A stretch of 64,000 bases of DNA from Escherichia coli (GTDB lineage Bacteria > Pseudomonadota > Gammaproteobacteria > Enterobacterales > Enterobacteriaceae). Below, one piece after another: positions 24,106 to 24,291 of this stretch (position 1 is its first letter; every line of letters begins with the position of its first letter). Made by a program: the position numbers and the translations under genes. The stretch lies in assembly GCF_045037415.1 (NCBI RefSeq), contig NZ_CP173438.1; one strand, 5' to 3'. The notes below the pieces were generated by a model, which did no database searches, had not been told where the DNA came from, and saw only the letters and a program-made list of their open reading frames with translations.

Positions 24106-24291
24106 AAGTTATCCTTACAATGTGTTTATCGCTTGCTAAGCATCGAGTGCGACGGAAATGCCAGAATAGCACTCTCCTGCATACACGCACCGATAGCCAC
24201 TTTTTTTCGCCCCCCAAATGTAGACCAGACGGGGGGCGAAAGGGAAGACTCCAGGTACGACAAATCAGGCGTTAAATCACGTTTTCTGGTC

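Follow-up and report, generated by a model that had tools for sequence, protein, structure and literature searches.

An inverted repeat lies in the spacer between yjaG and hupA

The window analyzed here is a 64,000-nucleotide stretch of the Escherichia coli chromosome, in reverse orientation relative to K-12, in which hemE, nfi, yjaG, hupA, and yjaH all lie on the minus strand; a window position is converted to its MG1655 equivalent by subtracting it from 4224386. The coding sequences of yjaG (a DUF416 protein; 24292..24882, minus strand) and hupA (HU-alpha; 23833..24105, minus strand) are separated by a spacer of 186 nt, in which p counts nucleotides beyond the yjaG stop codon (p = 24292 minus window position). 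A terminator scan placed the canonical intrinsic terminator of hupA at 23784..23805 on the minus strand, with a 3' end at MG1655 4200605 (window 23781). The coding sequence of yjaH begins 12 nt past the hupA stop codon, and the hupA terminator and 3' end (23781-23805, minus strand) fall inside its first ~40 nt.

The spacer holds a perfect 11-bp inverted repeat, TTTCGCCCCCC / GGGGGGCGAAA, at 24205-24241, 50 nt downstream of the yjaG stop codon. The arms are 100% complementary (upstream arm TTTCGCCCCCC at 24231..24241 and downstream arm GGGGGGCGAAA at 24205..24215, minus strand) and enclose a 15-nt 'loop', GTCTGGTCTACATTT, at 24216..24230 (minus strand). An earlier note on this DNA had described the pattern T7-CGCCCCCC-N16-GGGGGGCG-AAAGGG at 24195-24240; the pattern is present, but it runs from 24201 to 24244, the complementary arms measure 11 rather than 8 bp, and the stretch between them is 15 rather than 16 nt. 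The T-run before the stem on the plus strand and the A-run after it on the minus strand had been read correctly. This is the only substantial inverted repeat within the spacer; a second one of 8 bp (24222-24229 / 24285-24292), whose distal arm differs among species, was taken as chance.

The inverted repeat is beyond chance. The pattern GCCCCCC-N5-30-GGGGGGC has one match in the 64-kb window against 0.01 expected, and the window has ~10 places with any perfect inverted repeat (arms ≥11 bp, loops 3-20 nt), compared with 0.13 per dinucleotide shuffle. Folded as a single strand, the minus strand gives a predicted -36.9 kcal/mol as RNA (76 nt, z = -5.3), and the E. coli sequence gives -14 kcal/mol as DNA (51 nt, z = -4.4). 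The repeat was found at ≥95% identity in ~5420 of 5426 complete E. coli genomes. An apparent variant, strain SCU-124, differs in the lengths of homopolymers; yjaG is frameshifted in the same assembly, and sequencing error is the probable cause. Elsewhere in the window, upstream of zraP, two 17-bp arms (GAGTAAAAATGACTCGC ... GCGAGTCATTTTTACTC, 22565-22610) form another perfect inverted repeat, probably the site bound by ZraR between zraP and zraSR.

The repeat coincides with the hupA core promoter and start site

In E. coli MG1655, SMRT-Cappable-seq places the hupA transcription start site (TSS) at 4200175 (Yan et al. 2018, PMC6131387, supplementary file 3), and the unit from this position to the TTS at 4200605, reported in two conditions, holds b4000 (hupA) alone (PMC6131387). 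By coordinate conversion the start is at window 24211 (p81). For Salmonella, the cloning oligonucleotides designated 'hupA 5' UTR' begin GCGAAAAAAGTGG / GCGAAAAAAGTGGCTATCG (Smirnov et al. 2017, PMC5391140, Appendix Table S2) and the T7 oligonucleotides for the same 5'-UTR begin GGG-CGAAAAAAGTGG (Smirnov et al. 2017, PMC5391140); the equivalent start is the G at window 24210 (p82). Two independent published data sets thus place the hupA start at 24210..24211 on the minus strand, within the G-run arm. The 105-nt hupA 5' UTR (24106..24210, minus strand) that follows is consistent with the E. coli hupA-5' RNA of 110 nt, without added G, used in vitro by Stein et al. (2020).

With p82 (window 24210) taken as +1, the -10 hexamer, placed from the mapped start, is TACATT at 24217..24222 (minus strand, -12..-7), with A at -11 and T at -7. 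Conservation, together with the distance from the -10 hexamer, points to a putative -35 hexamer, TTCCCT, at 24241..24246 (minus strand, -36..-31), with an 18-bp spacer between the two. Read along the hupA strand, the order is TTCCCT, TTTCGCCCCCC, GTCTGGTC, TACATT, the discriminator TGGGGG, the +1 G, and CGAAAAAAAG. The upstream arm of the repeat occupies -31..-21, in the -35/-10 spacer, and touches the last base of the -35 hexamer; the loop (-20..-6) holds the -10 hexamer; and the downstream arm comprises the G-rich discriminator (-5..-1), +1, and positions +2..+6 of the hupA mRNA. The hupA promoter has reportedly been mapped before, by Kohno et al. in 1990 (J Mol Biol 213:27). A simple consensus promoter scan did not flag the hupA promoter. 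We rejected a candidate extended -10 element (TGcTATTCT, p121-129) because most genera have T in place of the A at p125 and because it lies downstream of the mapped start.

We consider it very probable that the inverted repeat is the sigma-70 core promoter and start site of hupA, from -31 to +6, acting as double-stranded promoter DNA. The suggestion that a structural element resides near the hupA promoter was essentially right, but rather than just lying upstream of the promoter the element is the core promoter itself, with the start site in one arm. RNA polymerase initiates within the G-run. On this reading the -35/-10 spacer and the discriminator happen to be complementary, and the near-invariant sequence would be kept for promoter function.

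The putative -35 hexamer of E. coli, TTCCCT, agrees with the consensus at 3/6 positions, and the alternative TTCACA, present in roughly one in four Enterobacteriaceae spacers and in nearly all of the more distant Enterobacterales sampled, at 5/6; the -35 of the Escherichia hupA promoter appears to be derived and weaker. The discriminator is G-rich in most genera, with Pragia and Proteus as exceptions. A G+C-rich discriminator, and perhaps the C-rich spacer, may tune open-complex stability, and judging from these two features the hupA promoter probably depends on negative supercoiling and responds to ppGpp/DksA. Such dependence would fit the exponential-phase, Fis-activated expression of hupA: its mRNA accumulates nearly only in exponential phase, and Fis activates the gene (Claret and Rouviere-Yaniv 1996, as reported in a citing paper). 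The literature searched yielded no statements on ppGpp or the discriminator at hupA. A G+C-rich discriminator is also a feature of rrnB P1, fis, and other stringently controlled, supercoiling-dependent promoters (cf. PMC8422995), and the TGGGGG between -10 and +1, the growth-phase regulation, and the activation by Fis liken hupA to them; by this analogy hupA may share their sensitivity.

The hupA leader carries one arm of the repeat

Because it carries the downstream arm alone, the hupA mRNA cannot adopt the hairpin. Folding predictions leave the first 11 nt of the leader unpaired and give the 105-nt leader as a whole no unusual stability (z = -0.87). Positions +4..+10 form an A7 tract (24201..24207, minus strand), of which the T-run of the plus strand is the complement; the tract is A6 in the Salmonella oligonucleotides, A8 in Serratia, and AAAAGAA in Proteus and Photorhabdus. 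The leader is largely kept out to Photorhabdus and Serratia, and the pairing described for RaiZ/ProQ accounts for only its last ~30 nt.

Several further observations concern this leader. In two of three conditions, Term-seq 3' ends lie within it at window 24133-24135 (MG1655 4200251/4200253, minus strand), 28-30 nt ahead of the ATG; they could reflect premature termination or processing. Dickeya has an insertion of ~125 nt in the hupA 5' UTR (locus L082, about 1917-2041), which resembles an ERIC/IRU repeat (GAGCTTACTTGAGTAAGTGAATGGGGTGAGCG), and Pectobacterium (L094) has a 16-17-nt insertion at the same site. In E. coli O157:H7 strain 9.1_Anguil, an IS3-family element (L086, 1245-2458) sits between the hupA promoter and the coding sequence; its insertion point, near window 24174, splits the leader.

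Promoter and leader sequences are conserved across Enterobacterales

We collected spacers from 78 Enterobacteriaceae species and then from Erwinia, Pantoea, Dickeya, Pectobacterium, Serratia, Proteus, Photorhabdus, and Pragia. In nearly all Enterobacteriaceae the yjaG/hupA spacer measures 186 nt. Averaged over 68 non-Escherichia Enterobacteriaceae genomes, divergence from E. coli was 0.53 at the four-fold degenerate sites of yjaG and 0.18 at those of hupA, 0.18 for p1-45, and 0.23 for p46-55; it was 0.031 for p56-81, which contains the C-run, the loop, and the G-run, and 0.027 for the 105-nt leader. Of 54 distinct Enterobacteriaceae spacers, 53 share the same loop and the remaining one has T63A; the TACATT hexamer is invariant in all aligned Enterobacterales. 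CTTCAC and TG[G/T]TCTACATT are retained as far as Pragia. The C-run is largely conserved, and within the spacer variation is greatest at the base of the stem (p51-55). Three more distant DUF416 loci, one from Utexia (L087) and two AT-rich metagenome loci (L088/L089), have unalignable spacers, show no comparable repeat, and are uninformative; one more DUF416 locus (L090) has no hupA downstream.

These values point to strong selection on primary sequence, as expected of a core promoter and its leader, and the promoter and 105-nt leader of hupA rank among the most conserved non-coding stretches of the window. Conservation of the C-run exceeds that usual for promoter spacers and is not obviously explained by core-promoter function alone.

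Base-pairing between the arms is not conserved

Conservation of the element had been proposed as a check in the earlier note, and the outcome is divided: the primary sequence is almost invariant across Enterobacterales, but base-pairing is not kept. Among 33 distinct sequences, none of the 11 pairs was altered on both sides in a compensatory manner, and six of the 11 depart by mispairs only. Paired cells amounted to 79.9% against a shuffled mean of 80.2%. The commonest variant, G79A, is found in 18 of 54 distinct sequences, opposite a C59 that never varies, and many genera have mid-stem mismatches (G79A, G80A, or G78T) where the partner C stays as it is.

Predicted DNA hairpin energies vary widely among lineages. 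The minimum free energy is -10 kcal/mol in Pantoea (z -3.7), -8 kcal/mol in Erwinia (z -2.8), and -7.8 kcal/mol in Photorhabdus, which has two G.T positions (z -1.5). It is -5.9 kcal/mol in Klebsiella (z -0.6), about -5.7 kcal/mol in Serratia, Pectobacterium, and Dickeya (z -1.1 to -1.5), -4.9 kcal/mol in Salmonella diarizonae (z -0.1), -4.3 kcal/mol in Kluyvera-type sequences (z 0.2), and -3.9 kcal/mol in Proteus (z 0.0). In Pragia an equivalent hairpin is absent. As judged from the aligned spacers, the perfect 11-bp repeat is the state of one lineage, largely Escherichia, and not a conserved structure. Hairpin potential that is still significant in Pantoea and Erwinia leaves room for some selection on pairing.

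The cruciform model of HU autorepression

The element is already known, a possible cruciform having been described here in the 1990s. As summarized in PMC3969353, Kohno et al. (1994, J Biochem 115:1113) found that an inverted repeat overlaps the E. coli hupA promoter and proposed that it extrudes as a cruciform on supercoiled DNA, that HU may promote this cruciform, and that the cruciform sterically blocks the promoter, amounting to HU autorepression. As far as can be told from this secondary citation, and from the repeat at 24205-24241 being the sole one available in the spacer, that repeat is the one described here: the locus is identical, the element apparently so, and we see no structural difference. 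The perfect 11-bp arms overlap functional promoter elements from -31 to +6, as the model has it. A regulatory-region inverted repeat whose extrusion is proposed to control transcription has likewise been described for exsBA of Vibrio parahaemolyticus, with HlyU (PMC10325908); organism, protein, and logic all differ from hupA, the regulator there removing the cruciform to activate.

The strongest competitor of the promoter reading builds on this model and holds that the pairing itself is selected, as a supercoil-driven cruciform switch, stabilized by HU, with which HU shuts its own promoter, both arms being conserved for that purpose. Besides the published model (as summarized in PMC3969353), it can draw on a perfect 11-bp repeat far above chance and on the extent of the repeat, which covers -31 to +6 and would therefore destroy the promoter on extrusion. 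The C-run and the G-run decay together in Pragia, and Pantoea and Erwinia keep hairpin potential with different flanks. HU, moreover, prefers four-way junctions. On the other side stand the missing compensatory change in the 33 distinct sequences and the mid-stem G79A, G80A, and G78T mismatches opposite an unchanged C, together with hairpin energies of only -2 to -6 kcal/mol (z near 0) in Klebsiella, Kluyvera-type sequences, Salmonella diarizonae, Proteus, and Pragia, against -14 kcal/mol in E. coli; Serratia, Pectobacterium, and Dickeya have z scores of about -1.1 to -1.5. A central spacer of 15 nt is also long for easy extrusion. On balance we regard selection on the pairing as doubtful, and we conclude that cruciform pairing is not the reason for the sequence conservation. 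Whether cruciform autorepression matters in vivo is a related question, to which we lean toward a negative answer a shade less firmly; if it does, it would be a secondary, lineage-variable layer and probably limited to some lineages.

A further proposal is that the very stable, perfect repeat arose by strengthening in particular lineages, namely Escherichia and a few relatives, with cruciform- or supercoil-based HU autorepression as an evolvable add-on to an otherwise frozen promoter. The stable repeat in Escherichia coincides with the weaker -35 hexamer (TTCACA to TTCCCT). We consider this proposal unlikely.

RNA hairpin, operator, and REP readings

An intrinsic terminator shares with the repeat a GC-rich stem downstream of a stop codon and flanking homopolymer runs; unlike one, the element has its T-run 5' of the stem and its A-run 3', a 15-nt loop, and no mapped 3' end. 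The terminator of hupA at 23784-23805 provides the canonical example for contrast with the promoter repeat. We rejected a yjaG terminator since the stem is followed by A7 on the minus strand and by AAAGGG on the plus strand, encloses 15 nt, and lacks a U-tract. A terminator consensus scan flagged only the hupA terminator (23805-23784) and none between yjaG and hupA. In the curated Term-seq table (Adams et al. 2021; complete, three growth conditions) the stretch from the yjaG stop codon to MG1655 4200251 contains no 3' end, and the Rho-termination table has no region in the same interval. The view that this is not a canonical intrinsic terminator of yjaG is thereby borne out, on both strands and by the scan, and the 3'-end mapping suggested along with it, as far as published Term-seq provides it, shows neither a yjaG 3' end nor a Rho-termination region at the element.

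An RNA hairpin could still act in yjaG read-through transcripts, as a terminator devoid of a U-tract, as a barrier to 3'-exonucleases that stabilizes the yjaG mRNA, or as a processing site. The strong predicted RNA fold of the minus strand (-36.9 kcal/mol), the lack of another terminator in the yjaG-hupA interval, and wobble-compatible changes (C54 to T in 12 distinct sequences; the two G.T positions of Photorhabdus) are in its favor. These are outweighed by the missing U-tract after the stem, by the interval from the yjaG stop codon to 4200251 being empty of curated 3' ends and Rho regions in three growth conditions, and by the commonest substitution, G79A, which gives a C.A combination that is not RNA-compatible; the invariant loop, for its part, is accounted for by the -10 element. 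We hold this reading to be very unlikely.

Slightly more improbable again is that the arms are half-sites of a palindromic operator, overlapping the promoter, for a putative dimeric regulator. Dyad symmetry across the promoter and the unusual conservation of the spacer C-run would agree with it, but the half-site centers are 26 bp apart, about 2.5 helical turns, which puts the half-sites on opposite faces of the helix; the arms neither co-vary nor stay symmetric across genera, and such a regulator was not found in the literature searched.

The REP-like element suggested in the earlier note, or another dispersed repetitive palindrome, has only its appearance as a GC-rich palindrome in an intergenic spacer in its favor, shared with REP and BIME sequences, and is excluded for practical purposes because the repeat is single-copy (median one and maximum two places per genome in 5420 E. 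coli genomes; one match in the 64-kb window), besides being syntenic at a fixed position across the whole order, near-invariant across genera, and without an Rfam family, a search of which returned only a chance-level match to mir-4716, at 16 bits where the gathering score is 76.

Implications for hupA regulation in Enterobacterales

The proper annotation of this element is the hupA core promoter with a published inverted repeat, and not a terminator or REP sequence; beyond annotation its significance is small. The modest new point is comparative: the sequence of promoter and leader is conserved, and the pairing needed by the cruciform model is not. If the perfect repeat were an add-on of Escherichia and a few relatives, autorepression would operate in some Enterobacterales and be lacking in others, such as Klebsiella and Salmonella diarizonae, which carry the G79A or G80A variants. 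Since base-pairing is not conserved, HU autorepression through a cruciform, should it occur, is probably not shared by enterobacteria in general.
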